Origin: a virus
Taxonomy: Duplodnaviria > Caudoviricetes
Reading direction: 5' to 3' (one strand)
IMG/VR virus record: IMGVR_UViG_3300032092_000112
Location: 1-37,127 of that record
DNA: 37,127 nt
Under the pieces are notes generated by a model. The model was given only the letters and a program-made list of their open reading frames with translations. It made no database searches and was not told the DNA's origin. Positions 7,150 through 25,808 of the stretch are shown piece by piece (the first letter of the stretch is position 1; every line of letters starts with the position of its first letter). The translations under genes were made by a program, and so were the position numbers.

Positions 7150-7867
7150 AAAATTGTCCTCCGATGTTGCGTGCCTGAAAAAGTTGATAGGTGCCGTCAG
7201 GAAAAAGAAGACCGTAGGCCCAGCCCTGCGCCCATCTTAATTTGCCCGTCTTCTTATTGATGTAGTCCATGTTTTTTCGACAAAGACACCCGATGCTCCG
7301 AGCCTCTGCCGGCTCACGCGATGCTACGGACGCCATCTCGATACTGTGAATATGTCCGTGCAGACAGCTTCCATAGATCGCAGCGTGTGTGCGACACGCG
7401 CTGACTCCCGCGTGGAATCCGTGCAGCACCGAGAGCTTGCCGAGTTCAAGCACGCCGAGATCGCTGTCATATGGCAGCATCTTCGCTTTGCATCGTTTGA
7501 CCGTGGCCTCGAGTTGCTTGATGCCGTCGTTGGCATAGTCGCGCATCACGCCGGTTGCAGATCCGCGGAAGTCGTAAATGCGCTCGTCGTGATTCCCGCG
7601 CAAAAAGTGATTTGATGTACCACCCTCAAAAAATCGTCGCAGGAAGTCGCTGCCCATCTCCCAATCTTCTGCTAACGATGCCGCCTTCTCGTCGTCGCTG
7701 GCGCCCTTGCGTAAATTCCTTAGATCAAACGCATCGCCTGCGTGCGCCCTAATCTCCGGCTTCCAGTCTCGCATAAAAGACCACAACGCACTCACGCTCG
7801 CAGCGTCAGCCATGTCGCCGTGGTTGTCGCTGACGACAATAAAGCGTTGGCCTCTGTGAGCCATCAT
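7112..7867 (-). CDS. Calcineurin-like metallophosphoesterase
   Basis: SDNH, GDAFD, GNHD, LHG and GHIH metal-binding motifs. Confidence 0.9.
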   Translation of the reverse strand: MMAHRGQRFIVVSDNHGDMADAASVSALWSFMRDWKPEIRAHAGDAFDLRNLRKGASDDEKAASLAEDWEMGSDFLRRFFEGGTSNHFLRGNHDERIYDFRGSATGVMRDYANDGIKQLEATVKRCKAKMLPYDSDLGVLELGKLSVLHGFHAGVSACRTHAAIYGSCLHGHIHSIEMASVASREPAEARSIGCLCRKNMDYINKKTGKLRWAQGWAYGLLFPDGTYQLFQARNIGGQFYAATEIKTYGTG

Positions 7868-10800
7868 GTCGCCGGTGATTTCTTTTCGATCAAGCGCCTT
7901 GCCTGCTCGAGCGTTTCAGTGACGCCGATCATGGCGCCGACCGGCGCGTAGACTCGGTATTTGCCGCCGGTTTTTTGGATGACTCGGTAGTTCATGTTGG
8001 TGCTCCAGGCTTGGCCGTTGGGTAGTTTCTCGGGTGCGGAGAATTTTACCTCAGGCATGAAGCGGATGTCAGGATTTGTAGTGTCAAACGCGCCAGAGTT
8101 GCCGGTCGCGGACTTGATCTGGGTCGGGTCAAAGACGATGAAGCCAGGAAGATCATCCTCAGTAATTCTCACTCCATCGTAGCCCGCCTCTTTAAGAGAA
8201 GCGACAATCTCCTTTTCATGGGTTGCCCAGTTTCCGTCAAAAATGCCGGGGATTCCTGGGCGTTGTTCTTCAGCAAACGAAAGTTCGTCAAGAAGACGGT
8301 TTGGCACTCCGGCATCTGACAACAAAGGTCTGATGTTTTCCCACGGAGTGCGCTCGCTAACTTCCGACAAATCCAGCAGGTTTTGCAGAGATAAAAACGC
8401 CTCCGTGACTTTTCCTCCGTTACCGCCCACTGACCGTCCTCCCGCGGCATAAGAATCTGCAACAGGTCTGGAGACCGTCCAAAATGAAATGGGGCGAAAC
8501 TCGTTCGTCGCACTCCCTCCGTGATACACGACAAGCGGCTTGCCGTCGCCATCGACCACCTTCGACTCACCAAACCACTTTTTGAACGCCGGCGTGTCAG
8601 GCGCGTCCGGCATGAAGTAAGCCAACTGGGAAGGTGATCCAACATCTTTACGCTTCCATTGTTTTCCAGCTTTTGGCGTAGACATGTAGCCAGCGGCTTT
8701 ATTGGAAGCATATGCTTCGGCCAATTGCTTGTCATTAAGCGCCGGCAATTTTTCAAGACCAGGGAACATTGCTTCATGCGGTTCAACGCGCTGACGGATG
8801 CGATCCCAAAGTGTCCATTGAGCAGGAAACACAGCAATTCCCAAATCGTTTGCTCTGCGTTCATTGATTTCCAAAGCAGATCTGTACGCATCAGACATTA
8901 CCTGGAAGTCAGCGGGTGTCTCAACCCACTTTACATCACGAATGTGCTCTGGAGCATTTGCACTGATTTCACCTTTTGCTGTTATGAGTTTTGCTTTACG
9001 GCTACCCATAGCAGCAAAGACTGCTTCGTTTACAAATTCACGGACACGATCTGCACCATACACTTCAGCCTGGCCAAGTACATCATCAAGACTCTTTGCC
9101 TTTGTTGCCGTAGGATCAGGCAATTTGGCCAACTCTTTGTTTCGTTCTTTTAATAGATCCGTTTTAGTTTTATCGCTTGATGCGTTGCTGATTTTTTTAG
9201 CAAACGATGATGAAACTTTTTTAGAGTCAGAAAGTAATTTGTTAAATCTATCAACAATGATGCCTTCAAAACGCTGACGCAATTGAGGATCTCCCAACAA
9301 CTCTTGACCAAAGATTCGCGACATATGGCGATCCATAGCGGAAATTGATGCATTGAGAGGATCCTGCCAAACAGATCCAAAAGATCCTGTTTTGGTTCCA
9401 AAACCGGACACTTGTGTCGTTAATTTATCGACAAAATTAGCCCACGATTCGTTGGGTTGTTTAACAAAAAAATCAGGATTTTTAGAGAAAAGACGCGCAG
9501 CATTTACGATGTTTGATAAGTCAGCAGTAATTGGAATACCAAGACCACCTTTTCCAGCAGCAATAAATCCTAGTTGTTGCTTCAACTGTTGATTCAATTT
9601 TACCAGATTTTCTTTTGTTGGATTGTCTGGATATAAATCAGCAAATTTCTTAATTTCATCCATCGAACCAAAGCGCAAGCGAGCCTGGCCCATTTCATTT
9701 GGCAGCAATGGAGCGTTTGGAGATAGCATTCCAAACACAATAGCGTTAAAGCTGGAAACCTTATCTCCAGGCGCCGGCTCCATTGTGCGGGCCAGCTTTG
9801 CGGTCAATTGACCATGCGTTGTTTCTGGCAACGACTTTACGTCAACTGGATGCGACTTCAGCCAAAGTAAATCGTAGTATGTGAATTTGCCATCTAGGCC
9901 GCCTGGCACTCTCGCAGTATTTCCAGCCACCCCTTGGGAGATTTCTTTGACATCTGAAAGAGGGCCAAGGTTTTCGACGCCGAATCCTTTGCCGTATTCC
10001 GCAAAGTCTTCTGGAGTCCAGTCTTTCGGTTCTTTGTTGCGGAATTTGATGTTACCTTGGTCGTCATATGAAACGTCTTTTGAGCTGGCCATATTGCGCC
10101 GAGGAAGTGCGGCTGCAATCTTGTTTTCCGGCATGAAGCGCGATCCCTCCGCTGAATTTGCATTCTTAAAATTGATCTGGTTCGCCTTTTTCTCTGCCCC
10201 GGCCTGCGTGTCGTAGATGCCGATGCGCTCGCCGGTCGGTGCGTACAAGCTGTGCTTGTTGCCCTTGGCGATAATGCGGAAGCCCTCGTCCGAGTTGTTG
10301 ACCTTTGCGCTGCCAAGGTTTTCAGCCGGTTTGAAATTAACCTGAGACAGACCGTAAGTGCCGTTTTCGTTGAACGAGAATTGACGACCAGTATCAGCAA
10401 TTCGACCAAGACGATCCAACCGCATGGTGCTGACAACTCGAGTGTCTCGGGATCCTTCGTAGGCCGGCTTGCCGATCTGACTTTTGCCGGTGCCAGATTC
10501 AGCAGCGATATTTGTACCTAGCGACGAAATGTTTTTGATGGCGCCCTCAGAGATCTGGGCTTTGGTTGGAACAAATCCGTAGATTTTGTTGATGATGTCC
10601 CGCTTGATCGGCCCAAACAATTCAGCACTCGGTTTTGCGACACCTTCACCGAGGCTTAGATTCTTGGTGTAGGCCATGACATCTTGCCAGGCTGCGTCCT
10701 TATCGCCGCCCCACTGGTCTAAGATCTTAGAGCGAGACATTATGTCGTCGAACCGAGCCTTCAATTGCGTGAGATCAACGTAATCAACCACCACTACGTT

Positions 10801-13254
10801 TTTCTTAGTCGTGCGGATCTTGTACGGAACAAAATCAAGATTGGTCATGCCGCGGCTGGCATAGACTGATGTCTCACCCTTCTTTGCAGTGGCTGGAAAA
10901 TAATCCCCATTCAGCACGTTGCCACTCTTGATCGCCTCGCTTGCAAACGTGAGTTTAAGAAATTGCTCTAGTGGGAAATACTTTTGATAGATGGCCAACT
11001 CGGCATCGTTGGGAGCATTTGTGCCCCGTGGTACGTTGGCAATTTCTTCAGCGGCGCGTGCGTTTGCAGCATCGCGGCCAATGTTAACCTGCTCTTCAGT
11101 CTTAACACCGATAACATCGCCAGTTGTCGGATCCTTTAGTAGCACGTCAGATTGGCCGTGCTCTTTAGCCCAATCTGCCAGCTTTGGTGTCGCCATCTTA
11201 TCAAGCGTAACGGGGGCCAGTGGCTTTCCGTTCTGCGCGATAGATTTGTTGATGTCGGTGCGGGCCTTGATCAGCTCAGATGCCAGCGCATCCATGCCCT
11301 TGTAACCGGTGCCAGTGGCATCGTAATCAATGCCGAGCTTGCTCAACGTGTAATCAATGGCACCCTTGGTAGCTGCAATTAAAGATCCATCCGTTGTCCG
11401 TTGGCCACGGAGCAGGAGGTCGCGATTTTCCCGGCGTTGCAGGAATTCGCGGAAGTATTCGGCGCCGATCTCCTCGGGCAGATTTTGTTTTTCAGCTAAG
11501 TAGTCGCGCAGTTTTTGTTTACCTTCCTCGGTGCCGCCGCGTTTGATGTAGTCCTCGGCAAATTGAACCTTTTCCTCTGGCGTAAATGTCTGATCAATTA
11601 CTTCGGTGAATTTTTTTCCAAATGTCTCACCAAGCGCCGTGCGCATGGCGCCGTGGAATGATTCGTGGAATCCGGTGCCAGGCTTGACGGTATCGACATT
11701 GATGTAGATCGCTGGCTTACCGCCGGTGACAGCAGATGGAAACACGGTAATGCCTTCAAACGATGTGCCGCTAGCCGCCGGCATCGCCTTGGCCTGCTCA
11801 TTGTTGATGAACGAAAAGTAAACGTCACTGCTTAACCAGTTCTTGGCGTCAACCATCTCAGCCACGGCTTCTTGGTTTCCATCTTTGATAAACTGGTCAA
11901 ACAGGCGCGATGCGTTAGCTCGGCTCTCTGGCTCAAGACTAGCAATGCCGCGCAGGGCATCATTTACGATCTTGTTCTGACGAATCATGCCAGATGCTTG
12001 AGCGTAGCCACGGCCAGCGAGGCCGCCAGCGCCGCCTAGCGCAAGACCGGCGCCCATGCCACCAGCAGCACCCTCTTCGCCGTCTGTGATGAATCCGATA
12101 GTGCCACCGATAATAGCACCTTCAGCAGCACCTTGAATGGCTGCGGAAACGTAAGGCGCCACAATGTCAGCGCCAGCAACGGATCCGACACGACCAATCG
12201 CTCGAGCAGCCGTCGATGCGGACAGATCGTTGGCCAGTGACTCAAAAACACCAAGTCGTCCCGCTTTCTTGCCAGCATGTTCTGCAAGTTTCTGCGTAAC
12301 CTCGCCGGCTACTTCCAAGCCCTTTCCAACCGCTTTGGCGCCAGCAATCGTCGTGGCAGCAGTGCTGAGTCCTGGGATGGTAAAGCCACCCAATTGGCCA
12401 GCCGCAAGCCCTGTGGAGCCTGTGGCAACGGCCTTCTCAACTATGCCAGCAACTTGTTCACTTCCTGTGAGTGCTCGAGCCGCCGCGCCGGCAACCTGTT
12501 GTGGCACCTTAGCAGCAGCGGAGGCAGCTTCACCAACAGCTTGAATGCCTTTTCCGCCCATTTGTGCAGCCCTGGCGCCCATCATACCAATACGCTCACC
12601 AACGCCCGCAACTTGAAGCAGAGCCGCACCAGGGAGTGGCGGTTGAGCAACGAGACTGATCGTTTCTGCCATTGCAGGCATTGAAGCCTGCCCTAAGATA
12701 TCCTTTCTGCTCTGTTGCCAGGTTTGCAGTCCCTTAAAGCTTTCAAAATCGCTGTCAATGATACGGTCGTATTCGGCTCGGTTTTCTTGCGTGTCCTTGA
12801 GATCGTTTGCTAGGCGGTATCGGGTGTAGCTGTTGTTGTCGTTTGAATAGCCTTCGAGCACACTAATAAACATGTTCCCGAAATCGCCGGCGGCAACCAT
12901 CGCACCTTGGCCAATGTTGGCGACAAGTGACGCGCCCTTTTCGATTGGGCCAGCCTGTGGATCAAATTTTGGAGCGGTGGTAAACGCATTGCTTACAAGT
13001 TCGCCAATGCCGCCAAACGCCTCGGCCAACTTGGCTAAAAAATCTACTGGTTTATCTTCTTTGTATCTACGCATCTCCATGAAGTCATCACGACTCATGC
13101 GCTGCGCGTAAGATGGATCCTCCGCAATTGATCGGACTACGTCCTCACCACTTACAGGAAACTCCTTCTGGACGATCTGTTGAATTTCTTCATCAGAAAC
13201 ATTGTCATCAAAAGTAATTGTTCCCCTGCCCGCTACGTTTACGGTTGTTGGCAT
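7864..13254 (-). CDS. Large polyvalent internal-virion/ejection protein (Gly/Ala-rich membrane segment, HExxH motif, HhH glycosylase-like and ADP-ribosyltransferase-like domains)
   Basis: 1796 aa, last gene of the virion operon. GAAEGAIIGGTIG...GAGLALGGAGG segment; FHESFH...EEIGAE; GFGTKTGSF...AMDRHM; FKKWFGESKVVD.DGKPLVVYHG...GYDG...QIKSATGNSGAFD. Confidence 0.85.
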   Translation of the reverse strand: MPTTVNVAGRGTITFDDNVSDEEIQQIVQKEFPVSGEDVVRSIAEDPSYAQRMSRDDFMEMRRYKEDKPVDFLAKLAEAFGGIGELVSNAFTTAPKFDPQAGPIEKGASLVANIGQGAMVAAGDFGNMFISVLEGYSNDNNSYTRYRLANDLKDTQENRAEYDRIIDSDFESFKGLQTWQQSRKDILGQASMPAMAETISLVAQPPLPGAALLQVAGVGERIGMMGARAAQMGGKGIQAVGEAASAAAKVPQQVAGAAARALTGSEQVAGIVEKAVATGSTGLAAGQLGGFTIPGLSTAATTIAGAKAVGKGLEVAGEVTQKLAEHAGKKAGRLGVFESLANDLSASTAARAIGRVGSVAGADIVAPYVSAAIQGAAEGAIIGGTIGFITDGEEGAAGGMGAGLALGGAGGLAGRGYAQASGMIRQNKIVNDALRGIASLEPESRANASRLFDQFIKDGNQEAVAEMVDAKNWLSSDVYFSFINNEQAKAMPAASGTSFEGITVFPSAVTGGKPAIYINVDTVKPGTGFHESFHGAMRTALGETFGKKFTEVIDQTFTPEEKVQFAEDYIKRGGTEEGKQKLRDYLAEKQNLPEEIGAEYFREFLQRRENRDLLLRGQRTTDGSLIAATKGAIDYTLSKLGIDYDATGTGYKGMDALASELIKARTDINKSIAQNGKPLAPVTLDKMATPKLADWAKEHGQSDVLLKDPTTGDVIGVKTEEQVNIGRDAANARAAEEIANVPRGTNAPNDAELAIYQKYFPLEQFLKLTFASEAIKSGNVLNGDYFPATAKKGETSVYASRGMTNLDFVPYKIRTTKKNVVVVDYVDLTQLKARFDDIMSRSKILDQWGGDKDAAWQDVMAYTKNLSLGEGVAKPSAELFGPIKRDIINKIYGFVPTKAQISEGAIKNISSLGTNIAAESGTGKSQIGKPAYEGSRDTRVVSTMRLDRLGRIADTGRQFSFNENGTYGLSQVNFKPAENLGSAKVNNSDEGFRIIAKGNKHSLYAPTGERIGIYDTQAGAEKKANQINFKNANSAEGSRFMPENKIAAALPRRNMASSKDVSYDDQGNIKFRNKEPKDWTPEDFAEYGKGFGVENLGPLSDVKEISQGVAGNTARVPGGLDGKFTYYDLLWLKSHPVDVKSLPETTHGQLTAKLARTMEPAPGDKVSSFNAIVFGMLSPNAPLLPNEMGQARLRFGSMDEIKKFADLYPDNPTKENLVKLNQQLKQQLGFIAAGKGGLGIPITADLSNIVNAARLFSKNPDFFVKQPNESWANFVDKLTTQVSGFGTKTGSFGSVWQDPLNASISAMDRHMSRIFGQELLGDPQLRQRFEGIIVDRFNKLLSDSKKVSSSFAKKISNASSDKTKTDLLKERNKELAKLPDPTATKAKSLDDVLGQAEVYGADRVREFVNEAVFAAMGSRKAKLITAKGEISANAPEHIRDVKWVETPADFQVMSDAYRSALEINERRANDLGIAVFPAQWTLWDRIRQRVEPHEAMFPGLEKLPALNDKQLAEAYASNKAAGYMSTPKAGKQWKRKDVGSPSQLAYFMPDAPDTPAFKKWFGESKVVDGDGKPLVVYHGGSATNEFRPISFWTVSRPVADSYAAGGRSVGGNGGKVTEAFLSLQNLLDLSEVSERTPWENIRPLLSDAGVPNRLLDELSFAEEQRPGIPGIFDGNWATHEKEIVASLKEAGYDGVRITEDDLPGFIVFDPTQIKSATGNSGAFDTTNPDIRFMPEVKFSAPEKLPNGQAWSTNMNYRVIQKTGGKYRVYAPVGAMIGVTETLEQARRLIEKKSPAT

Positions 13255-13255
13255 A

Positions 13256-14551
13256 TTATTTACTCTTTTTTGCAGGATCGCGAGTTACCGTGTAGTTAAG
13301 ACCACTTGGAGCTTTAACCGTTACGGGTTCGACTACGGGTGGTGGTGTTGGCTTAATTTGTAACCGAGAAAGATAATCCGCAGCATTTTGGCCAATGCCA
13401 GCGGTCATGCCTTGTATCAATTGATTACGCATCAATTTTTTTTGCTCTATTACGGTTTTCCCATCTCCACCTTGTGGGAAGTATTGTTTATCGTATTTAT
13501 TGTACTCATCTGGGCCAATAGCCGCACCCGATTCTTTACGAAGAGCGGCAGCAATCCAATTATTTTTGGCTGCATCATATGCTTTTTTATCATCACTTGT
13601 TAACCGTTCTGGAGTGAACGACTGATTAAAAAATGCCGTTGCATCATATTTATTGTTATTAATAAAACCTTCGTTTTGAATTAAACGAAGCGAGTAATTA
13701 AGAGCATTAGATTGATCTGCGGTTAATGGTTTTGCTCCACCGCCTTCAGCTTCTTTTTTAACCTGAGCATCAATTTCTTTTTGAATGTCTTCAGCATCTT
13801 TTGATCTTCCAGCAAGCAATGCCTGATCACGGTCAAATTGTTTTTTGCCTAGATCGCTTTGCGGCAAAGGTGTTGCTGCTGCTTTTTCTCTTGGAATAAG
13901 CGTGGCGTTGCCTGGGCCTGTTTGTAATACGTCAACAGACTGACCGCTTTCACCTGTAAGCGTCTTAATTTTTGGCTCAGTGCCAAAATTGATGTTTTGA
14001 ACATTTTTAAGACCTGTAAGAATATCGTTGTTACCAACATTTCCACCCAATTCAGAAAACGTCTGCAACGCAGAAGGTAAATCAAGATTTCCATCCGTGT
14101 CCGTATTCAGCGACATTGCTTCACGGAGGAGCTTGTTGTCGTTTTCTTTTGATTTAAGATAACTTAGCTCCGCTTCGCTGCGTAGATTAGCCAGACGAGA
14201 TGTTTCCGCTTGGGCTTTCCTTTGCTGGAGCATTTGCTCGGTGCTGATATCAGCAAACAGAGCTTTGTGGTCAGCAAGCGTAGCTTTGCCCGACGTATAC
14301 TTTTCAAGCAATTTTGGATCGACCGTTTCAGCCAATTTTGGATCGCTTTTGAAAAACCTTCCAATGGTGCCACCAAGTGCCTGGCGCTCTTCCTCGGACT
14401 TGTAGTACTTATCAATACCTTCTGAAACGCTTGCACCGAGCGCAGCAATGCCGCCACCAATTGAGCGCCCAATGTTAGCAGACGACTGCATGTAGCCCTC
14501 GGGCAAGGGGCTGATGTACTGAACTGGTTGAAAGTATGGACCTTTTTGCAT
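13256..14551 (-). CDS. Internal virion/ejection protein
   Basis: 431 aa, N-terminal IGRSIGGGIAALG segment and C-terminal LRKESGAAI...YFPQGGD motif, middle of three ejection genes, AT-rich. Confidence 0.7.
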   Translation of the reverse strand: MQKGPYFQPVQYISPLPEGYMQSSANIGRSIGGGIAALGASVSEGIDKYYKSEEERQALGGTIGRFFKSDPKLAETVDPKLLEKYTSGKATLADHKALFADISTEQMLQQRKAQAETSRLANLRSEAELSYLKSKENDNKLLREAMSLNTDTDGNLDLPSALQTFSELGGNVGNNDILTGLKNVQNINFGTEPKIKTLTGESGQSVDVLQTGPGNATLIPREKAAATPLPQSDLGKKQFDRDQALLAGRSKDAEDIQKEIDAQVKKEAEGGGAKPLTADQSNALNYSLRLIQNEGFINNNKYDATAFFNQSFTPERLTSDDKKAYDAAKNNWIAAALRKESGAAIGPDEYNKYDKQYFPQGGDGKTVIEQKKLMRNQLIQGMTAGIGQNAADYLSRLQIKPTPPPVVEPVTVKAPSGLNYTVTRDPAKKSK

Positions 14552-14557
14552 GGTAAA

Positions 14558-17500
14558 TTATTTGAGGGTGGCGATGCGCGAATCCATCCAACGCCGGATA
14601 AGATTCTTCGTGCGTGGCTTGTTGCTAATAAACTCGGCGAACTGGGCGCCGTATTTGCAATAAAAGTCATGGAACCACTTTGGAGCGCGAGTGAACAACC
14701 AAGTGCGGAATTCCTTCCACTTTGGATTGCTGGCGCCGTAGACCTCGCGGGCAACCCAGCAGGGAAATGCTTTATTGAATGCCGCCGCGCCCAATGAACC
14801 ACCGGCGAGAGATCCAAAACCCTGCATAGCGCCACCGATAACCGCCGCGTTGGCCTGAGCCGTGGCAATGTTCGCAGCGTTGGTCGCCTGCTGGTTGCCG
14901 CCGTAGATGTTGTTGGCGTAAGACGACTCTGGGTTGAACAAAGCAGGGCCAGCGTTGCTGGTGAGGTTCATCCCTTGGTTGGTCGTGTTCTGCGCAAATT
15001 GACCGGCGGTGCTGCTGCGATTCAGAATTGCTGCGTACGGGTCAAACTGAGTCGCTTGGCGGAGACCTACCAACTGAGCAGCATAGGCGCGATCTGCACC
15101 AAGACCCTGATTGTAGAGTTGGCCGGCTTGGCCTAGGTTTTGAAGGTAATTTTGATTCTGCTGCGCTTGGAATGCACGGTTCGCTTCAGCCGCAGCGATG
15201 TTGGCCTGTTGATTGGCGGCCTGACCTTGAAAGTTGTAGCCGGCGTTGATTTGGGCGGCGCGGAGTGCAGCCTCTTGGTTTGCCATGCCTGCTCTTTGAG
15301 CGGCATCCCTGTTTGCTTGAGCGACGGCGCTCTGGTTTGATGCGTTGAACTGCTGACTCGCCGCATAGTTTTGTTGATTTGCCAGAGCTGCGCGGAGTGC
15401 GGCCTCTTGGTTTGCCATGCCTGCTCTTTGAGCGGCATCCCTGTTTGCTTGAGCGACAGCGCTCTGGTTCGATGCGTTGAACTGCTGACTTGCCGTATAG
15501 TTTTGTTGATTTGCGAGAGCTGCACGCATTGCGGCCTCTTGGTTTGCCAGCCCGCCTCTTTGCGCGGCATCCCTGTTTGCCTGATCGACGGCGCTCTGGT
15601 TCAAGGCGTTGAACTGCTGACTCGCCATATAGTTTTGTTGATTTGCGAGAGCTGCACGCATTGCGGCCTCTTGGTTTGCTAGCCCGCCTCTTTGCGCGGC
15701 ATCCCTGTTTGCCTGATCGACGGCGCTCTGATTTGAAGCATTAAATTGAGCACGCTGAAAATCGGTCTGTTGATTTGCCAAGTCCGCACGAAGCGCGGCC
15801 TCTTGGTTGAGTTGCGCTAGTGTGGTAGCGTTGCTGATATTGTATTGGCCGGTCTGCATGCCGGCCTGTTGGTTGGCCAGTTGGGCTTGCAGGTTCTGTT
15901 GAGCCGAGAACCTGTCTGCCTCAGTTCCAAATTGAGCGGTCTGCGTGGATGCAGATAGCCGTGCCTGTTGGTTGGCCAGTGCTGCGCGGAGTGCGGCCTC
16001 TTGGTTTGCTTGTTGCAACGACGCCTGCGTGCCGACGTTGAATTGCTGGGCTTGAAGCCCTGCCTGTTGGTTGGCCAAGGCAATTCGGTTTTCGGCGTCC
16101 TGATTTGCCAGGCCAGCCTGCAAACCGGTCTGGACGTTAAGCGTGCCGGTTTGGATCCCAGCCTGCTGGTTGGCGAGTTGTGCTCTGAGTAATGCGTCCT
16201 GATTTGCCTGCTGTGCCTCAAGGCTGGTCCGAGCGTTAAATTGGTCGGCGGTTAGACCCGCCTGTTGATTTGCAAGTTGCGATTGGAGACCACTTTGCTG
16301 ATTTAGTTGCTGAAACTGATTAGCCGCCGCTTGGTTTGCGAGCGCGACCTCGAGCGGGGTGCGGGTGTTGAATTGCGCGGCTTCGAATTGGTTGCGCACA
16401 TTCTGCTGCTGTATGCCCACATCGCCGGCTAGCACATTGCCAGCAAAACCACGATTTGCGGCCTGCTCGGCTTGCAACTGTTGATTAATTTGGCCGGCCA
16501 GCCCTAGGTTCTCAATTGCACGCGAGCGTTGGTTGACCAAACGATTTTGAACTTCGGCGCTGATGGCCTGCGGTGACATCGCCATGCCGCGGGCGGCGTA
16601 GGATGCACGCACCTGCTGCTCTGCTTGACGTTGCTCGGCTGCGCTGAGACTGCCATCCGCGGTGAGGTTGTTGAGCACGGCGCTCTCAAGTGCGCTTGAG
16701 ATCCTAGATGGGCCAGCGTTGAGCGCCTGACTGTAGAGGCTGCTTCCCAGCGTGCCCGGCTGAATAAGCCCAGCTTGGATCTGGTCGGGCGTGTAAATTT
16801 GCTGCGCGGTGATGTTCTGCGCGGCGACATCTCGGGCGCCAATATTCTGCGGCGCGTTGATGAGTGCGGCGCCCACGCGATCCGCACCAATTTGCCCCGG
16901 TGCGCCAACTCGGGCTGCGACCGCTTGCTGGGCTGCGACGGAACCTGGTGACATCATCTGCTGCGCTTGCACCTCGTCTGCGGTGACGGCACGACCACTT
17001 ACGCCCTGTCCGGTAACTGCGTCGTAGCCTAGGGTGCCCTGAGAGCCAATGCGCTCGGCGTTGATATCTCGAGCTGAGATGTTGTTGAATCCGGTGTTCT
17101 CTCGGCCTACTATTGATGCGTCGATATCTCGAGCTGAGATGTTGTTGAATCCGGTGTTCTCTCGGCCCACTATCGATGCCTCGATATCTCGAGCAGCAAT
17201 GTTATCAAATCCGGTGTTTTCGCGGCCCATTATCGAGGCGTCGATATCTCGAGCAGCAATGTTATCAAATCCGGTGTTTTCGCGAGCCAACTCAGCGGCA
17301 CCTATCGTCGGCGCGTTGATTTGATTTGGGGTCAGAAATTGAGCGTCTGCTGGGCGTTGGGACAACTCAGCATTTAGCCGGTCGAGGTTGGTATTGCTGC
17401 TGCGCCTGAGATCTTCAGCACGCAATAAATTTTCTCTCAGCTCAGGATTTAGCGCGTTGAATGCATTTTGGCCTTGTTGCCCGAGTGCAGATACGTCAGC

Positions 17501-17773
17501 CAAATCGGCGGTGCGTTGCTGGCGGTTGAGCTGTTCTTGCAGCGTCTGGAGCTGCGGGGCGGCTTCAGCATATTGTTGCATCAATCCCCGCTGCCCATCG
17601 ACGCCGAACATAGTTTGATCGGCTAGTTGCAACGCTAGCTTGTTGTACTGCGGTTGGAATTGAGCCTCAGAAGCATACAGTTCTGGCGCGAGCTTGATCT
17701 GATTGGCCAGCGTGTCGCGTGTCTCGGTTGCGTAGTCACGCTGCGGGGCATTTTGAATTGTGGTAGATCCCAT
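14558..17773 (-). CDS. Gln/Ala/Asn-rich DNA ejection (pilot/tube-like) protein with pentad and hendecad repeats and a C-terminal CWVAREVYG domain
   Basis: 1071 aa, located after the nozzle genes. N-terminal MGS, 11-residue xxLANQxAxLx repeats, Gly-rich hydrophobic segment, then a CFI-box-CTERM-like tail. Confidence 0.8.
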   Translation of the reverse strand: MGSTTIQNAPQRDYATETRDTLANQIKLAPELYASEAQFQPQYNKLALQLADQTMFGVDGQRGLMQQYAEAAPQLQTLQEQLNRQQRTADLADVSALGQQGQNAFNALNPELRENLLRAEDLRRSSNTNLDRLNAELSQRPADAQFLTPNQINAPTIGAAELARENTGFDNIAARDIDASIMGRENTGFDNIAARDIEASIVGRENTGFNNISARDIDASIVGRENTGFNNISARDINAERIGSQGTLGYDAVTGQGVSGRAVTADEVQAQQMMSPGSVAAQQAVAARVGAPGQIGADRVGAALINAPQNIGARDVAAQNITAQQIYTPDQIQAGLIQPGTLGSSLYSQALNAGPSRISSALESAVLNNLTADGSLSAAEQRQAEQQVRASYAARGMAMSPQAISAEVQNRLVNQRSRAIENLGLAGQINQQLQAEQAANRGFAGNVLAGDVGIQQQNVRNQFEAAQFNTRTPLEVALANQAAANQFQQLNQQSGLQSQLANQQAGLTADQFNARTSLEAQQANQDALLRAQLANQQAGIQTGTLNVQTGLQAGLANQDAENRIALANQQAGLQAQQFNVGTQASLQQANQEAALRAALANQQARLSASTQTAQFGTEADRFSAQQNLQAQLANQQAGMQTGQYNISNATTLAQLNQEAALRADLANQQTDFQRAQFNASNQSAVDQANRDAAQRGGLANQEAAMRAALANQQNYMASQQFNALNQSAVDQANRDAAQRGGLANQEAAMRAALANQQNYTASQQFNASNQSAVAQANRDAAQRAGMANQEAALRAALANQQNYAASQQFNASNQSAVAQANRDAAQRAGMANQEAALRAAQINAGYNFQGQAANQQANIAAAEANRAFQAQQNQNYLQNLGQAGQLYNQGLGADRAYAAQLVGLRQATQFDPYAAILNRSSTAGQFAQNTTNQGMNLTSNAGPALFNPESSYANNIYGGNQQATNAANIATAQANAAVIGGAMQGFGSLAGGSLGAAAFNKAFPCWVAREVYGASNPKWKEFRTWLFTRAPKWFHDFYCKYGAQFAEFISNKPRTKNLIRRWMDSRIATLK
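15255..15754. repeat. Tandem repeat of about 3.8 x 132 bp (44 aa = 4 hendecads)
   Basis: CCTCTTGGTTTGC recurs at 15271, 15403, 15535 and 15667; unit QFNASNQSAVxQANRDAAQRxGxANQEAAxRAALANQQNYxASQ. Confidence 0.95.
17045..17284. repeat. Tandem repeat of 4 x 60 bp (20 aa = 4 pentads)
   Basis: GATATCTCGAGC...AATCCGGTGTT recurs every 60 bp; unit RENTGFxNIxARDIxASIxG. Confidence 0.95.
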
Positions 17774-17777
17774 GTGA

Positions 17778-18203
17778 TTAGTCCTTTAAAGTTGTTAACC
17801 TGATGTATTTTGAAGTGATTTCGACGACCCCTTTTGGCCTGAGAGCAAAGACGTGATCAACGGATCCCGGCGGCCATTTTTTGAACATTTCGACGAAGAG
17901 TAACGTGAGGCCGCCGCGCCGAGTGGAAATGATGTCCAGCAGCAAAAGGATTTTGCCTTTGGGATTAGTGCTGCGCCAATCCCAATTGGACGAAATTTCC
18001 CCTACGTCGCACTGCATTGCGGTCCCGAGGGCCACAATCTCATCACGATGTTTGACGAGTGCGAGCGTATTCTGTTGCGAGTGAAAAGCCAGATATTGTC
18101 GGATGGATTCTCGGGGCCAGTTTTGAAAGCATTGCCGTCCGCGGTTGGCCAACGCAAAATCGGTGATGCGCTCGAGCCAATCGACTGGTGGGGCGACGAT
18201 CAT
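17778..18203 (-). CDS. Hypothetical virion-assembly protein (possible GNAT-like fold)
   Basis: 141-aa ORF between the nozzle and the first ejection gene, the slot of T7 gp13/P22 gp14. The fold is a guess. Confidence 0.5.
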   Translation of the reverse strand: MIVAPPVDWLERITDFALANRGRQCFQNWPRESIRQYLAFHSQQNTLALVKHRDEIVALGTAMQCDVGEISSNWDWRSTNPKGKILLLLDIISTRRGGLTLLFVEMFKKWPPGSVDHVFALRPKGVVEITSKYIRLTTLKD

Positions 18204-20005
18204 TCTTCGCTGATGACATTGCGCCCAGGTACGGTTGCGGAGACGCGCAGACCCCGAATGGTTGGCCGGCCAAAGACCGTGTCGAATTTCAGATCTAGGC
18301 CAAAGCCACGTTTGGCGATGGGGAACCTCTTCGTGAAATCTTCGTTGGCCGACGCCGAAAACGCGAAGACCTCCGAGCTGTTGTCTGGGTTTGTCGCCAC
18401 GGCGGTGATGGTCATGGCGTCGTTGCTGTTGCTCAGGATGTCCACCTCCCCCGAGGTAAATCGTTTTGCCGAAAAAGTGTTGAAGAAATATCGCCTGGTG
18501 AGGAGCTGGCCAGCGATCTGATGCTGGATGAATGCGTTGGTGATCTGCGACGGCAGTTGGAACGGAATTGTGGGAGTGCCGGTCGTGGATTGCAGCTCGT
18601 CGAAATTGAGTTCTTCGCTTAGGAAAATGCCGAACTCTTGGTTGATCGCGTACAACCTTTTCTTCTCACCGTAAAGTGCGACGACAAAGTTATCGACAAA
18701 CATGCCGGTGGGAAACTTGTCGATACTCTCCCACGCCTTGTTGAGCAGGGAATAAATCAGCACCACATTGTTTCGAGTCGATCCATCGATTGGGATGGCG
18801 AGGTAGTAGCGGTTGTCAAAAACTTTGCCCACGGCGTTGGCGACCGCGGTGGCGTTGATCCGACCGATGATGTCGTTGACCGGATCGGAGAGCGGCGTGG
18901 TGTTGCCGAGCAGCTTTAGATCAAGCGAAGGGTTGAGCAGGTACACTCCATTGTCGCTCAGAAAAAACATGTACTGGCCGGCGGCGACAATGGTACGGCG
19001 AGCGGAGCAGCCAAATTCGTTGGTCAGAGACTCAATGAAACTCAACGCACCAGGGGGCGATCCCGCGACGTAGGTGTTGGGATCGATGTAGGCGTAGTAG
19101 ATCGAATTCCGCTGGAAGATCAAAAACTTGTCCTCCTGCCACGGCTGAAATCCGACGATAAAATCGTTGGCGCCAAGGTTAATGACGAACTGAGCAAAGT
19201 CGGCGTCGAACGTGTTGTAGTCGAGATAGTCGCTCGCCGCAATGGTGTCTCGGGTCGTTTTGACGATGAGCCGGTTCTTAAAGTAGAGAGCGAAGTCGCT
19301 GGGGGGCATGTTAGCCGTGGCGCCAATAGTTACGCCCTGCGGAACTACCGTGACCGTCGAGGCACCATCCCAAACCAGAGCTGATTTTGCTTTTCGGCAA
19401 ACGATGGTGCCGTGCGCGGGAGTCGCAGGCGTGTTGGCCACCGTGTAGTCGAACGTGTTCGCGGTGACGTTACTGATCACGAACGATCCATTGTAGTCGC
19501 TCTGCGTGGCACCCGAGATGATGACCTCGTTGCCGTTGGAAAATCCGTGCGCGGTGATGGTGACAGTGGCGGTCGCGGACACCCGCGTGATGCTGGTGAC
19601 CGACACCGGATCGCTGCCTTGGCCGCGGAAGATGTACATCACGTTGTTCGCCTGAACGAGATCGACCTTGTCAGTCGAGGTGATGGTGCGCCCGGTCGGG
19701 TAGTTTATCGCGGCGCCAATCGTAAGCGTCGAGGTGTTGAAAACGAAGAGCGAGTTGGCCATCGCCAGCACGATCAACTCGACGCCGCTGGACGAAGAAT
19801 ACACTCCCGAGCCAAAGATTGTGAGGCCGACAATGTCGCCGGCGGTCAGGCGCTTTTGACCCTTGCGGGTGACGGCGATGCCAAGGTCCATGCGCATGTT
19901 TTGCGACATCTGAACGTATCCTGGCTCAAGCTGGAGCGGATTGATTCTGCTCTGCATTCCAAGAAATCCGTTCTCGGCCTCGACCATGTATTGGTTACTG
20001 GGCAT
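18200..20005 (-). CDS. Tail nozzle / tubular protein B-like stabilisation protein
   Basis: 601 aa, beta-rich; F.GM.SR..P, NMR.D.G....RKG, FGCSARRTI and FFLSDNGVY motifs typical of podovirus nozzle propellers. Confidence 0.8.
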   Translation of the reverse strand: MPSNQYMVEAENGFLGMQSRINPLQLEPGYVQMSQNMRMDLGIAVTRKGQKRLTAGDIVGLTIFGSGVYSSSSGVELIVLAMANSLFVFNTSTLTIGAAINYPTGRTITSTDKVDLVQANNVMYIFRGQGSDPVSVTSITRVSATATVTITAHGFSNGNEVIISGATQSDYNGSFVISNVTANTFDYTVANTPATPAHGTIVCRKAKSALVWDGASTVTVVPQGVTIGATANMPPSDFALYFKNRLIVKTTRDTIAASDYLDYNTFDADFAQFVINLGANDFIVGFQPWQEDKFLIFQRNSIYYAYIDPNTYVAGSPPGALSFIESLTNEFGCSARRTIVAAGQYMFFLSDNGVYLLNPSLDLKLLGNTTPLSDPVNDIIGRINATAVANAVGKVFDNRYYLAIPIDGSTRNNVVLIYSLLNKAWESIDKFPTGMFVDNFVVALYGEKKRLYAINQEFGIFLSEELNFDELQSTTGTPTIPFQLPSQITNAFIQHQIAGQLLTRRYFFNTFSAKRFTSGEVDILSNSNDAMTITAVATNPDNSSEVFAFSASANEDFTKRFPIAKRGFGLDLKFDTVFGRPTIRGLRVSATVPGRNVISEE

Positions 20006-21905: not shown

Positions 21906-24002
21906 TTATTTGGATTCTAAAGCGGCAAGGCGGGCGCGGAGCGACTTGAGTTCTGCGACAAGAATCGGAATTAGTGCCGAGTCACTGCGCTGCCATTGTT
22001 TCGTGATAGTTTCGGAGTCTTCGTCGCCAACGGTCACCGCGCCGATGTGGGCGAAGATTGGGTCGGCGGCGTGTTGTTCTTGAGCAACAAACCCAACGAC
22101 GTTTTTGCCGTTCTCGTCGCTGTTCTTCCAGTCGAACACGCGAGGCTTGAGACTGTCGATTAGACGGCCCGAATCCGTGAAGTCGCGGAGGTTTTCTTTG
22201 AGGCGACCGTCCGAGGTGGTGTTGTAAGCAACTGCGTTGGTCGTGGTGACGCGAGAAATGCTACCAATTACTGAGCCGCTTCCGTTGCGCCATGCCGCGA
22301 ATACCGCGCTGCTCGTGTCTGAGCTGTCGGAAATGTCGATGCCGCTTTTCACTGCAAGCGTGCTGCCTGCGCGGAACCATGCCGAGCCGGTCGCGCCGAC
22401 TGCGCCCGACACGACTTGAGCGGTGGCACTCGCGTCTCCGGTCACGGCTAGGCCGGTGGAGTTGACGACCAGTTTTGGCGTGCTAAACGTAGTGCCGCCA
22501 GCCGTTGTTGATGGCGTAATTTCTAAGCCGTTATCCTGACTGAATTGAGCACCTATTAACCAAGCCGTTTTTGTTGAGCCAGTCCGCAAAATAATGCTGT
22601 TGTCGGCAACGGCGTTCGTAACTTGGCCCAACGTAATTCTAGGGCTTGATGCTGTCGTTCCAAAATCTACATTTCCCGTGCTCGACACCGCCCCAGTCAC
22701 GGCGAGGCCGGTGGAGGAGAAGGTAGCGACGTCAGTTCCTGTCCCGCTCGCGCTGATAAAACCGAGCGTGGTGTTTGACGTAGAAGCCGATCCTACGTTT
22801 AGCCGGATAAACGACGCGCCCACCGAAGTATTCTTGCGCCCGCTCGCGCCGCCCGACGTGCCGAAATAGTTATTCGACAAAATGACGTTGCTTCCAGAAA
22901 TGCCCGGTTCGCCCGATTGAAAGTAAGCGGGTGCTGTGCTCGATGCGCTGTCTGAAATTCGGACGGAGCCGTTAAAGAAATCGGCACCGCCGCCAAGGGT
23001 AACATTGCCTGTTGTACTCAACGCCCCCGTCACGGCAAGGCCGGTGGAGGATAGCCGAGCGACCTCAGTTGTTCCGGCTGAATAGAAGGCAAGGTCCGCG
23101 CTCGCCGATGGCGTCTCAATCTTGAATCGGTTGTTGGAGTTGGTTCGGAACTGCAAGCCAACCGAAGAGATGCCGGGAGACTCAAGAGTGGTTACGCCGT
23201 TGCTTGAGTTAGTCGAAAGCGTCGTAAACGCGCCCGTGCTCGGCGTCGTCGCGCCGATGGCCGTGGAGTTTAGGCCAGTCAAGGTAATAGTGGCAGAGTC
23301 CGTAAAAGTAATTACATTACCGGCAGTTCCAGATGCAACAGTCTGAAACACATGAGAGCCATTCACCTGCCTGTAATTTGTCGCAACGCCGGTTGTTAAA
23401 TAAATGTTAGACGGAGTGCTATTTACATAAACATTTGCGCCTATTTCAGCAAACGGAGCAAGGCCTGTGCTTCCGTTTATATTTGCGCCAAGGCCAAGAG
23501 AGATAACCTTGCGGCTTGAAACCCACGCTGGTTGAGTTGCGCCGATAGAAAGGCCGGTTGTTGCGCTAATCGTCGTCGCCGCCACCGTGCTCGGCGTCGT
23601 GGCTCCCACCGTGCCGTTGATGTTGATCGAGGCCGTGCCAGTCAGGTTCGTGACCGTGCCCGAGCTGGGTGTGCCCAATGCGCCGCCATTAACGACCGGT
23701 GCGCCCGCTGTGCCTACGTTGACCGCCAGAGCCGTTGCGATGCCCGTGCCGAGACCGGAAATTCCGGTGCTGATCGGAATGCCAGTGGCGTTTGCGAACA
23801 CCTGCGTGAGCGTCGATTTGCGCAGTGCCGTGTCCGCGGCGCTGTGGATCAGTACGGTGTCCGCGGCGAGCGGTACGGTTTTAGCGGTCTGATCGGTGAT
23901 GGCGCCTGCCAGTAGAATAGCAGAGTCGGCCAGTGCGTTTAGATTGGCTGCGGTGACCTGGTCGCCGGTGATGTAGGTGGTGCCTTTTTGGATCTGTGCC
24001 AT
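21906..24002 (-). CDS. Tail fibre with a C-terminal intramolecular chaperone (Peptidase S74)
   Basis: N-terminal VTAANLNAL anchor, Thr/Ser/Gly-rich shaft, YNTTSDGRLKEN cleavage motif, GFVAQE and a C-terminal coiled coil. Confidence 0.9.
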   Translation of the reverse strand: MAQIQKGTTYITGDQVTAANLNALADSAILLAGAITDQTAKTVPLAADTVLIHSAADTALRKSTLTQVFANATGIPISTGISGLGTGIATALAVNVGTAGAPVVNGGALGTPSSGTVTNLTGTASININGTVGATTPSTVAATTISATTGLSIGATQPAWVSSRKVISLGLGANINGSTGLAPFAEIGANVYVNSTPSNIYLTTGVATNYRQVNGSHVFQTVASGTAGNVITFTDSATITLTGLNSTAIGATTPSTGAFTTLSTNSSNGVTTLESPGISSVGLQFRTNSNNRFKIETPSASADLAFYSAGTTEVARLSSTGLAVTGALSTTGNVTLGGGADFFNGSVRISDSASSTAPAYFQSGEPGISGSNVILSNNYFGTSGGASGRKNTSVGASFIRLNVGSASTSNTTLGFISASGTGTDVATFSSTGLAVTGAVSSTGNVDFGTTASSPRITLGQVTNAVADNSIILRTGSTKTAWLIGAQFSQDNGLEITPSTTAGGTTFSTPKLVVNSTGLAVTGDASATAQVVSGAVGATGSAWFRAGSTLAVKSGIDISDSSDTSSAVFAAWRNGSGSVIGSISRVTTTNAVAYNTTSDGRLKENLRDFTDSGRLIDSLKPRVFDWKNSDENGKNVVGFVAQEQHAADPIFAHIGAVTVGDEDSETITKQWQRSDSALIPILVAELKSLRARLAALESK

Positions 24003-24005
24003 AAA

Positions 24006-25808
24006 TTAAGGGAGTGAACCGAATTGATAGGTGGTGCCGTTAAGCCGTATAAATGCCGCAGTCGCGCTCGCCCAAACGTCGCCGTTGACCGGCGATGTGG
24101 GATTTGCGCCGGCCAGAATGCGTAGACTAGAGACCGATGTCGTGGAAGCTGCAAGCAGTAGATTAGTCGAGGCCGAACCCGCAGCGCCGACGCCGACCGT
24201 GGAAAGTTGAGGAGACGTTGATAGCACTGTATCGCCGGTGCCGGTCGATGTGGTCACGCCGGTGCCACCATTGGCCACGGGGAGTGCCGTGCCGCTGTAG
24301 GTAATCGCCAGCGTGCCGGCGCCTGTAATTGGACTGCCAGAAATCGACAACACGCTGGGCACCGTTGCGGCCACCGAGGTCACCGTCCCGCCAGACGAGG
24401 GAGAGCTATTTGTAACCGTAAAGCTCGGATAGGTTCCGCTGACAGATATGCCCGTGCCGGCAGCGATGGCCACGGTCTGATCTGGCGCACTATTGGTTAT
24501 AGTAAAATTTGGATATGTGCCACTGGTCGATATTCCGGTGCTGGCCGTTAAGGCCACGGTCTGGTCGGGCGCGGTATTAGTGATGGTGAGCGTGCCTGAG
24601 GTAGTGATAGGACTACCTGATACGCTGATCCCCGTGCCAGCGGTAGCCGCAACAGATGTCACCGATCCACCGGCGTCGGCCACGAAGCTGACGTTGGTGC
24701 CGTCGCTCTGTAGGTTCTTTCCGCTCGCGCCGGCCTGACTTGGCAGGAGGGCATTGAGCGCCGCCTGCGCCGTGACCTGACCAGTGCCGCCCTTCGCAAT
24801 CGGCACCGTGTCCGAAAGCGTAGACCCTGCAGCGGTGACCGTAATCGCTGCGGAGCCGTCAAAGTTTACTCCGTTGATGGCGCGAGCCGTCTGAAGAATG
24901 GTCGCACTCCCAGCGTTGCCTGTGATCGTAGTCTGGTCACCCGTGTTGGTCCCGCTCAGATTTGACCCACTGACCGCCCCAGACGCAGCAACGGATGTCG
25001 GTGTGATGGCGCCGAGCGTCAGGCTGATGGCCGGCGTCGTGGTGGCAGTGGCCACGGTCCCGCTGACGCCATTGGCGGTCGTCACCGATACGCTGGTGAC
25101 AGATCCCACGCCAGCCGCCACCCAAGAGGTGGTCGTGCCGTTTGTCGAGAGCACCTTGCCCGAGTTGCCCGCCTGGCTGGGCGTAAGGTCGTTGAGATCT
25201 GGAGCAGTCCACGAGGCATCGGCTCGCAGAAATTTCTTGGCTGCGGCAGATCCTACGGTGGGCGCCAACACTAGACCCTGAGTGCCGCCGGATCCTGAGT
25301 CGCCCACGAAGACCGGCAGCATAGCGTTGACCGACGCCATGCTCAGATCGGTTGGGGCGCCGGTGCCGCTAGACCGGCCCTTGATTACGGTGCCAGTCAT
25401 GTCGGCCAGCTTCGCGTTGGTCACTACGCCGGCTGCAATGGTCGAAGCGAATGAGCCTGTGCCCGAGCCAGTGACATCTCCGGTCAACGTGATTGTCTGG
25501 TCGCCAGTATTAGTGCCGCTCAGGTTGCTCCCCGAGACGGCCCCAGAGGCGACCACACTGGTCGGCGTAATTGCGCCAAGACCTAGCGCAATTGTTCCGG
25601 TCGATGTAATGGGAGAGCCACTACTGGTGATTCCATTGGATCCGCTTACCGAGACCGAGGTGACCGTACCGCCGCCGGACGCTGCTAACAATTGCGCCAC
25701 CGTGGCCCGCTTGTTGGTCGAGGTTGATCCGTCCACCAAGACCGTGAAGTCGTTGGTGTTGACGCCAGTGGCGACCGGCAACTGAGAGATTTTTTTATCA
25801 ACGCTCAT
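24006..25808 (-). CDS. Fibre/decoration protein with repeated GTVTSV and SGTNTGDQT modules
   Basis: 600 aa, KKISQLP N-terminus, internal repeats and ARAINGVNFDGSAAIT, PIAKGGTG and LPVANGGTG fibre motifs. Confidence 0.8.
   Translation of the reverse strand: MSVDKKISQLPVATGVNTNDFTVLVDGSTSTNKRATVAQLLAASGGGTVTSVSVSGSNGITSSGSPITSTGTIALGLGAITPTSVVASGAVSGSNLSGTNTGDQTITLTGDVTGSGTGSFASTIAAGVVTNAKLADMTGTVIKGRSSGTGAPTDLSMASVNAMLPVFVGDSGSGGTQGLVLAPTVGSAAAKKFLRADASWTAPDLNDLTPSQAGNSGKVLSTNGTTTSWVAAGVGSVTSVSVTTANGVSGTVATATTTPAISLTLGAITPTSVAASGAVSGSNLSGTNTGDQTTITGNAGSATILQTARAINGVNFDGSAAITVTAAGSTLSDTVPIAKGGTGQVTAQAALNALLPSQAGASGKNLQSDGTNVSFVADAGGSVTSVAATAGTGISVSGSPITTSGTLTITNTAPDQTVALTASTGISTSGTYPNFTITNSAPDQTVAIAAGTGISVSGTYPSFTVTNSSPSSGGTVTSVAATVPSVLSISGSPITGAGTLAITYSGTALPVANGGTGVTTSTGTGDTVLSTSPQLSTVGVGAAGSASTNLLLAASTTSVSSLRILAGANPTSPVNGDVWASATAAFIRLNGTTYQFGSLP

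Follow-up and report, generated by a model that had tools for sequence, protein, structure and literature searches.

Mirrored repeat arms of matched length point to a fold-back ejection protein in an uncultured family of short-tailed phages

Introduction

In the current view, the bridge between a short-tailed phage and the cell is a small hairpin protein of the gp14/gp7 type, which has about 200 amino acids and is conserved in size. Why, then, does a phage genome with this gene slot encode a protein there that has 1071 amino acids and consists largely of short repeats? The genome is the 37,127-base viral record IMGVR_UViG_3300032092_000112 (Caudoviricetes), the whole of which we call the window, and the gene is the open reading frame (ORF) at 14558-17773 on the minus strand. 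We call its product the arm protein and its two arrays of repeats the N arm and the C arm. A first-pass annotation had proposed that the chain folds back on itself, with an extended N arm running antiparallel along a helical C arm, unit by unit, in a trans-envelope DNA conduit. We find that the two arms match in mirror order, and that the family varies this protein from 259 to 1071 amino acids by matched units in both halves.

Results

Two repeat arms in mirror register

The parse of the repeats in the first-pass annotation held up. Residues 151-340 (17323-16754; 190 amino acids) divide into 37 units, of which 32 have five residues and 5 have six. Residues 341-453 form a center of 113 amino acids without repeats, and residues 454-871 (16414-15161) are 38 uninterrupted 11-residue units (hendecads), with asparagine at position 5 in 36 of the 38. 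The pentad repeat is also real, with a large hydrophobic residue at position 2 and a small residue at position 4, but the motif that had been given for it (xIxAx) is too strict: it fits just 14 of the 32 five-residue units, and the relaxed form x[ILVM]xAx fits 19.

Some units stand out from the others. Counting outward from the center, the special units are at 3, 7, 10, 13, 19, 22, 26, 30, and 34 in the N arm and at 2, 6, 9, 12, 18, 21, 25, 29, and 33 in the C arm, as previously listed. All nine special N units match a special C unit at an offset of 1. This match was reached in 0 of 200,000 shuffles at the fixed offset and in 0 of 20,000 shuffles at any offset, and the best overlap in parallel (non-mirror) order is 6. 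The rules that define a special unit were set post hoc, after the sequence had been seen. They also flag C unit 16 (phenylalanine at position 4), which was omitted from the earlier list and has neither a six-residue nor a TGF partner.

The outer four-unit blocks of both arms are recent tandem duplications (60 base pairs ×3.7 in the N arm and 132 base pairs ×3.5-4.1 in the C arm). The inner, non-tandem part alone gives 5/5 mirror matches (p 0.005-0.015). The contigs of the best-matching public run, which is possibly the source sample, show no differences from the window in the 8 pieces listed. These contigs break at the tandem blocks, so the block copy number is not confirmed by any single contig.

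The arms do not mirror each other at the DNA level: the gene has no long inverted repeats, only 11 pairs of 14-22 nucleotides scattered across it. The coupling of the arms is therefore at the protein level, and fold-back pairing is likely. With assumed rises of 3.3 Å per residue for the N arm and 1.5 Å for the C arm, both arms come to 627 Å, as had been calculated.

The arms change length together

The first set of relatives comprised 46 proteins and 89 viral loci. Among 136 sequences, 95 were anchored, which gave 70 unique arm pairs; the other 41 were dropped before the units were counted because they were armless or truncated, because the anchors failed, or (in two cases) because the wrong ORF had been taken. 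The unit counts of the unique pairs range from 8 to 40, and N units track C units 1:1 (slope 0.96, r = 0.990), with 69 of the 70 pairs within 1.5 units of 1:1. So, pentad and hendecad numbers do not vary independently across the homologs. The center has a near-constant length between its anchors in the armed homologs (100 amino acids in 46 of 47, and 101 in the other).

When 1.84 billion representatives were searched with a profile, 776 matched at E ≤ 1e-30 and 3304 at E ≤ 0.001; the weaker matches may include low-complexity ones. The matches listed included 147 new proteins, 82 of which could be anchored. Among these 82, the lengths of the N and C inserts are tightly correlated (Spearman 0.98), and two control lengths show no correlation. 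Some of the new representatives resemble loci that were already in the first set, and one (P0070) is truncated and was anchored falsely.

Phylogenetic contrasts, for which the tree was made from the non-repeat segments of 148 taxa, gave r = 0.975 and a slope of 1.99, and the two arms changed with the same sign in 102 of 104 non-trivial contrasts. In residues, the slope is 2.08 for long inserts, versus 2.1-2.2 expected for 5-6 residues on 11. For short inserts, the slope is 1.24, as for helix on helix.

Insertions and deletions (indels) tell the same story. In 25 pairs of relatives, which were hand-picked and are not independent, the net indels in the two arms are equal within 1 unit in 22 cases, and in simple cases the positions of the indels mirror each other. 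For instance, P0015 is shorter than P0023 by 7 units at rows 4/5 and by 6 units at rows 15/15.

The mirror register is also found in other members of the family. Of 13 further proteins, 12 showed the mirror match at p < 0.05. Among them is a distant subfamily with other motifs (GY versus QFG), which keeps the register, with tyrosine or phenylalanine at pentad position 2 and phenylalanine at hendecad position 4 as its marks. Mutual information, pooled over unit pairs, is highest when the mirror offset is 0 or 1 (10.1 and 9.9); it is 7.0-7.7 for the remaining mirror offsets and 4.4-5.1 when the arms are compared in parallel. After correction, the strongest cells join pentad position 2 with two hendecad positions: 10 and, in the next unit, 5.

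Could the match be due to chance, to an assembly artifact, or to a mirror at the DNA level? No single independent contig spans the tandem blocks, and the special-unit rules are post hoc, both of which would suit such an explanation. It is opposed by the shuffles, the independent contrasts, the paired indels outside of the tandem blocks, and the lack of long inverted repeats. We consider it largely refuted and scarcely credible. On co-evolution alone, we judge it very probable that the arms pair by folding back.

The gene slot and its relation to P22 gp7

The window record is 99% complete according to CheckV. The order of genes on its minus strand is terminase, a 716-amino-acid gene in the portal position, scaffold, an SU10-type capsid protein, and fibers, followed by genes for proteins of 601, 141, 1071 (the arm protein), 431, and 1796 amino acids. 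The order of hub, small gene, arm protein, mid-sized gene, and large gene is conserved across the homologous loci, and the same order is found in P22: 10-(26)-14-7-20-16. The arm protein gene is thus in an ejection slot, after the hub or nozzle and a small gene and before two larger ejection genes; the small gene and the downstream gene were assigned by position only. As for the hub, 7 of 17 homologs of the 601-amino-acid protein match phrog_578 at E ≤ 0.01, and P22 gp10 itself matches this family at 3e-227. The window's own 601-amino-acid protein has no match to phrog_578 at E ≤ 0.001.

We did not find homology to known ejection proteins with profiles. The whole arm protein has no match in Pfam, PHROG, or NCBIfam, and the Pfam set that was searched included PF25688, which (with phrog_598) represents P22 gp7. 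PF25688 and phrog_598 had no match in 37 mostly armless members at E ≤ 0.05 and were absent among 25 of the 27 families listed for 62 members. Profile-profile comparisons with gp7, gp10, gp14, gp20, and gp26 gave nothing significant. The alignment with gp10 has 161 columns at 24% identity (E = 0.12, not significant), and the 431-amino-acid downstream protein has no significant profile-profile match to gp20.

Language-model features gave a different view. For an armless relative (L058), the nearest named clusters in the Atlas are P22_gp7 (score 0.96, 192/256 features), and PF25688 is on 46% of its nearest cluster, with the named-cluster filter on. An armed relative (P0026) scored 0.87 against gp7 clusters (143/256 features), which we treat as a lead only. 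Among longer homologs of gp7, 19 of 21 rows carry a second Pfam family. With 1071 amino acids, the arm protein is far outside the range of gp14-type proteins (~180-240 amino acids). Because the profile tests for PF25688 found no match, we file the arm protein as working like gp7/gp14, as its slot and features suggest, and not as a member of PF25688. The slot and the language-model likeness to P22 gp7 also support the terms "ejection protein" and "DNA conduit" that the first-pass annotation had used.

Armless relatives and predicted structures

Armless relatives of 259-426 amino acids occupy the same gene slot. Therefore, the arms are an optional, symmetric insertion that flanks the center on both sides. 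The C insert has 533 residues in the window protein versus 61 in an armless relative, and the 472 additional residues correspond to ~70 nm of helix.

The model of an armless relative is all helical, with a predicted local distance difference test score (pLDDT) of 70.5 and a predicted template modeling score (pTM) of 0.38. The part of this model on either side of a short central helix (residues 91-197) aligns with helical hairpins of a generic kind (Z up to 7.8). A fold search of the PDB gave no match at E ≤ 0.001; the P22 gp7 entries 13EF and 12BO were absent from the results and may post-date the PDB set that was searched. In BFVD, four rows were significant, all of them uncharacterized phage proteins, and two rows named "DNA transfer protein" were not significant (E = 0.08 and 0.71). 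In the full-length model, the C arm is helical and the N arm is non-helical. As modeled, then, the armless form would be a helical hairpin around the center, and the C arm would be a helix.

We placed 395 unique hendecads on an 11/3 helical wheel. Alanine is dominant at positions 1, 4, and 8, and leucine and methionine are at positions 3 and 10, on the opposite side. Asparagine is at position 5 in 80% of the hendecads, and glutamine and charged residues cluster at positions 7 and 11. The two packing stripes are ~180 degrees apart (the alanine vector is at 351 degrees and the Leu/Ile/Val/Met vector is at 172 degrees), which would be more in keeping with a many-helix ring than with a trimer. A complex prediction with three copies each of residues 454-640 of the C arm and residues 246-340 of the N arm scored 0.23 and 0.28, compared to a mark of 0.32; we take this as evidence neither for nor against the pairing, and the true number of copies may not be three.

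The spacing of the stripes also bears on a different explanation, which is that the protein forms a thin closed bundle, such as a needle or tether made from a trimer of hairpins. Such a bundle would extend to the cell surface or exert a pull on it, and no DNA would pass through. The fusion cores of coronaviruses are a precedent for such packing, with antiparallel extended chains in the grooves of a coiled coil and bonds from side chains to the main chain (PMC11946484). However, a trimer would have a single core stripe, and both the gene slot and the Atlas likeness indicate a channel former. We consider the closed bundle to be quite unlikely.

Where the arms would lie

In 154 of 174 family members, hydrophobicity reaches its maximum in the C-tail, past the end of the C arm, and the median hydrophobicity is 1.17 in the C-tail versus 0.41 in the center. 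In the window protein, the maximum over 19 residues on the Kyte-Doolittle scale is 1.09 in the C-tail and 0.58 in the center. The maxima in the arms are 0.63 and 0.41, so they lack a hydrophobic membrane belt. The arm protein thus has a candidate membrane-inserting segment at its C-terminal end, as in gp7, although the values are modest.

The structures of related machines suggest how to orient the hairpin. P22 gp7* is a dodecamer in which each chain folds back into two helices, and residues 90-126 of gp7 are a fingertip that is wedged in gp10; the gp7* bundle is an extracellular channel across a gap of ~6 nm, and its C-terminal helices enter the outer membrane (10.64898/2026.09.03.749273). 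In the same phage, gp20 spans the periplasm, and the whole channel is 50 nm long (10.64898/2026.09.03.749273). T7 gp14 and Ar-KM gp41 are hairpins after ejection, with the turn in the nozzle (PMC11784390; 10.64898/2026.05.18.726046).

The first-pass annotation had placed the arms across the envelope. This placement is probably incorrect. The turn of the hairpin docks on the hub or nozzle in P22, T7, and Ar-KM, and gp7* is extracellular. If the turn sits on the hub and the anchor lies past the C arm, then the arms would be between the tail and the outer membrane. Because the hydrophobic segment is beyond the C arm, the arms are more likely an extracellular extension of the tail than a periplasmic tunnel.

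Alternatively, the same fold-back tube could cross the outer membrane and a wide periplasm to reach the inner membrane, much as phiX174 H spans the cell wall. The Gln/Asn-rich hendecads do resemble phiX174 H, and the length of ~60 nm is close to that of the whole P22 channel. But the arms have no hydrophobic belt, and in the systems described above, the proteins from the gp7/gp14 slot are the extracellular and outer-membrane part, with the next gene encoding the periplasmic part; the window has a gene in this next slot as well. Also, armless relatives of 259-274 amino acids would be too short for the periplasm. Crossing of the periplasm by the arms seems unlikely to us, and we lean moderately towards an extracellular DNA tube.

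A proposed mechanism and what weighs against it

We propose that the arm protein is probably a first-ejected protein of the gp7/gp14 type whose arms fold back, and that several copies form a DNA tube of ~60 nm from the hub to the outer membrane. Such a tube would likely be several times as long as the known tubes of this kind. The conserved center would dock on the gp10-like hub, and the extended N arm would lie antiparallel along the helical C arm. The hendecad helices would pack side by side through the alanine stripe (1, 4, 8) and the Leu/Met stripe (3, 10), with the strand in the groove between neighboring helices, the pentad position-2 residue between hendecad positions 10 and 5, and Asn5 bonded to the backbone of the strand. 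Hendecad positions 7 and 11 might face the lumen (we propose this assignment of the inner face). The Gly-rich C-tail would anchor in the outer membrane, perhaps after cleavage of the optional C-terminal module.

The number of units would then set the reach of the tube, with 8-40 units giving ~13-66 nm beyond the armless base. A phage equipped in this way could get across a thick surface layer, be it a capsule, an S-layer, or a polysaccharide coat. Each 1.65 nm would cost 16 residues with an extended strand versus 22 for helix on helix.

More tentatively, this large uncultured family of podophages may have a telescoping tail. As the chain leaves the hub, the strand would zip onto the helix and build an extracellular DNA tube of ~7 to more than 70 nm. 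Its length would be the mirrored repeat count, tuned to the thickness of the capsule or surface layer, so that tape measure and tube are in one chain with a readable pairing code.

The pairing of the arms unit by unit, as the first-pass annotation had it, agrees with the 1:1 counts, the mirrored indels, and the shuffles, but the contacts are seen in no model. This and several other observations weigh against the proposal or parts of it. In the full-length AlphaFold2 model (pTM 0.26), the N arm has a pLDDT of ~30 and the strand is not placed on the helix. One locus (L050) failed the special-unit test (3/5, p = 0.26), and P0045 and L034 (period-2) match equally well in parallel order. P0027 is a clear exception to equal counts, since relative to P0025 its N arm is shorter by 2 units but its C arm is longer by 4 hendecads. 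In P0046, 2 hendecads are missing and the N arm is unchanged; these imbalances may be tolerated, or they could be assembly errors or evolutionary intermediates. Four anchored representatives (P0187, P0094, P0052, and P0183) are off the 5:11 line. The length of the gene in the 431-amino-acid slot does not track arm length (Spearman 0.15, n = 11), and the hydrophobicity of the putative anchor is modest (1.09). There is no profile match to PF25688 or phrog_598, and profile-profile (hhalign) scores against gp7 are at the level of shuffles. Finally, the surface barrier that would be bridged is a guess, as no host emerged from the searches of GenBank phages and, with one pattern only, of GTDB genomes.

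Among the representatives off the line, P0183 has matched repeats, each with ~16-18 residues in the N half of the chain and 18 in the C half. These are apparently helix on helix, a second route to lengthening the same hairpin.

The occasional unbalanced arms would be easier to understand if the pairing acts before or during ejection, so that the strand keeps the helix soluble or unassembled in the capsid, or zipping drives extrusion, and the final tube is made of helices alone. Ejection proteins do refold strongly between the stored and ejected states (PMC11784390; 10.64898/2026.05.18.726046). On the other hand, the hairpins of gp14 and gp41 are the post-ejection state, and a phage with a 37-kb genome would hardly have room in its head for a straight hairpin of 60 nm. 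We find this explanation highly doubtful and prefer an ejected tube in which the arms stay paired.

Features of the locus

Table 1. Features of the arm protein and the neighboring genes. Positions are in the window unless a locus is named.
Feature	Position	Strand	Basis
Arm protein gene (1071 amino acids), in the P22 gp7 / T7 gp14 slot	14558..17773	-	ORF, gene order, armless relative resembling P22_gp7 clusters
N-terminal helical domain, residues 1-150, common to armless relatives; predicted outer layer at base of hairpin	17324..17773	-	
N arm, residues 151-340, probable extended strand	16754..17323	-	low-confidence, non-helical in model
60-base-pair tandem block ×3.7, 4 pentads per copy, partner of the 132-base-pair block	17058..17278	-	
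Center, residues 341-453, 113 amino acids	16415..16753	-	
Most conserved helix-turn-helix, residues 376-412, AARG motif; putative hub-docking "fingertip"	16538..16648	-	invariant columns, analogy to P22 gp7 90-126
C arm, residues 454-871, 38 hendecads, predicted long helix	15161..16414	-	
132-base-pair tandem block ×3.5-4.1, 4 hendecads per copy	15264..15808	-	
C-side base, residues 872-960, DP..ILGR and LFNPES motifs, conserved in armless relatives	14894..15160	-	
Gly/Ala-rich, most hydrophobic segment, residues 961-1003; putative outer-membrane anchor	14765..14893	-	Kyte-Doolittle
Optional C-terminal CWVAREVYG module, residues 1005-1071	14561..14761	-	weak CFI-box-CTERM likeness
601-amino-acid gene, likely P22 gp10-like tail hub and putative docking partner, upstream of arm protein gene	18200..20005	-	phrog_578 matches of homologs
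431-amino-acid gene, downstream of arm protein gene, gp20/gp15 slot, putative periplasmic tube	13256..14551	-	position only
1796-amino-acid gene, gp16 slot, ART-PolyVal domain	7864..13254	-	domain search
Alternative C-terminal modules	L034:4353-4787; L068:6054-6308; L075:6015-6299		

The C-terminal module varies among the relatives. In the window protein, the last 67 residues have a weak likeness to CFI-box-CTERM (17.8 bits, below the cut-off of 40). This module is replaced by a Hint-like domain in L034 and by an S74 chaperone in L068, or it is absent. Overall, the swaps include the CWVAREVYG type, Hint-like, Peptidase_S74, a Cys-Cys type, or none. Hint and S74 domains cleave themselves off. 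The module might act as a cap that covers the hydrophobic tail and can be removed, and its cleavage in the arm protein is a guess. At the other end of the chain, P0001, P0002, P0004, and others have an optional insertion of ~60 amino acids near residue 58, in the N-terminal domain; the window protein lacks it, and it has no evident partner on the C side.

Among the neighboring genes, homologs of the hub-like protein (18200-20005) range in size from 582 to 921 amino acids. Some have small inserted domains that are E1_FCCH-like or endosialidase barrel-like (all below the cut-off), and some have EPTP propeller-like repeats. The gp20-slot gene encodes 597 amino acids in a close relative (L013) versus 431 in the window (13256-14551). 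The 1796-amino-acid protein in the gp16 slot has an ADP-ribosyltransferase-like domain of the ART-PolyVal type at residues 1568-1723 (E = 2e-14). An enzyme of this kind may therefore be injected together with the phage DNA. A tail-fiber-like gene at 21906-24002 (minus strand) has a C-terminal Peptidase_S74 chaperone, and a second fiber-like gene, encoding 600 amino acids, is at 24006-25808.

Ten public runs contain at least a fifth of the window's words (runs with small word shares were excluded): seven are labeled as freshwater metagenome, two as fungus metagenome, and one as metagenome. The arm protein gene had no match among GenBank phages, where we found no cultured phage with the gene, and it was not found in GTDB prokaryote genomes, which were searched with one pattern only.

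Discussion

If the proposal is correct, then podophages can grow a tail as long as that of a small siphophage at the moment of infection, and for uncultured phages, the repeat count would predict the thickness of the host's surface. The 5:11 mirror code would also be a clear example from nature of how a helix and an extended chain co-evolve unit by unit, and protein tubes of a set length could use it as a template. In the literature we did not find a description of a mirrored, length-tunable pentad/hendecad phage protein, with most subscription papers outside the scope of the search.

Comparison with known systems

The closest known proteins are P22 gp7* and Sf6 gp11 (PF25688, phrog_598). They share with the arm protein a place in the gene order behind a gp10-like hub gene and one small gene, Gln/Asn-rich arms, and a Gly-rich hydrophobic C-terminus; a fold-back around a central hub-docking segment is probably shared as well, and the armless form resembles them in language-model features. 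In contrast, P22 gp7 has 229 amino acids, packs helix on helix, and crosses a gap of ~6 nm. The arm protein has 1071 amino acids, would pack a strand on a hendecad helix, would reach ~60 nm, varies in length among its relatives, and lacks profile-level homology to gp7.

T7 gp14 and Ar-KM gp41 are also first-ejected proteins, and they form antiparallel hairpins with the turn in the nozzle and both termini outward. Unlike what we propose, these are hexamers of short helical hairpins. Proteins like gp14 have 181-240 amino acids and are the most size-conserved of the ejection proteins (PMC8954989), whereas the arm protein family ranges from 259 to 1071 amino acids.

Extended chains on helical assemblies have precedents. 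In T7, residues 157-228 of gp16 are a "molecular tape", an extended chain that cements the helices of the gp15 DNA tunnel (PMC8954989). However, these are two separate proteins in the periplasm, and the accessible part of that report mentions no repeats or unit-for-unit coupling of length. The gp72:gp73 tube of DEV is formed by antiparallel chains from two proteins (PMC10925440). In class I fusion cores (HR2 on HR1), an antiparallel extended chain lies in the groove of a coiled coil, with hydrophobic residues in pockets and bonds from side chains to the backbone (PMC11946484). Those cores are closed trimers of ~6 nm without a lumen and come from eukaryotic viruses, and the analogy is structural only.

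As for the helices, phiX174 H has Gln/Asn/Arg-rich hendecad helices that form a decameric DNA tube (PMC7354561), and the C arm is likewise predicted to be a Gln/Asn-rich hendecad helix. H differs in having three hendecads plus heptads and a length of 170 Å, in coming from a single-stranded DNA microvirus, and in that the accessible text mentions no bracing strand (PMC7354561). The window is instead from a tailed phage with a terminase and an SU10-type capsid protein, and the arm protein had no sequence match to H in searches of the PDB. Extended chains on helical assemblies and Gln-rich hendecad DNA tubes were already known, and within the literature searched, the mirrored, length-tunable form has no counterpart.

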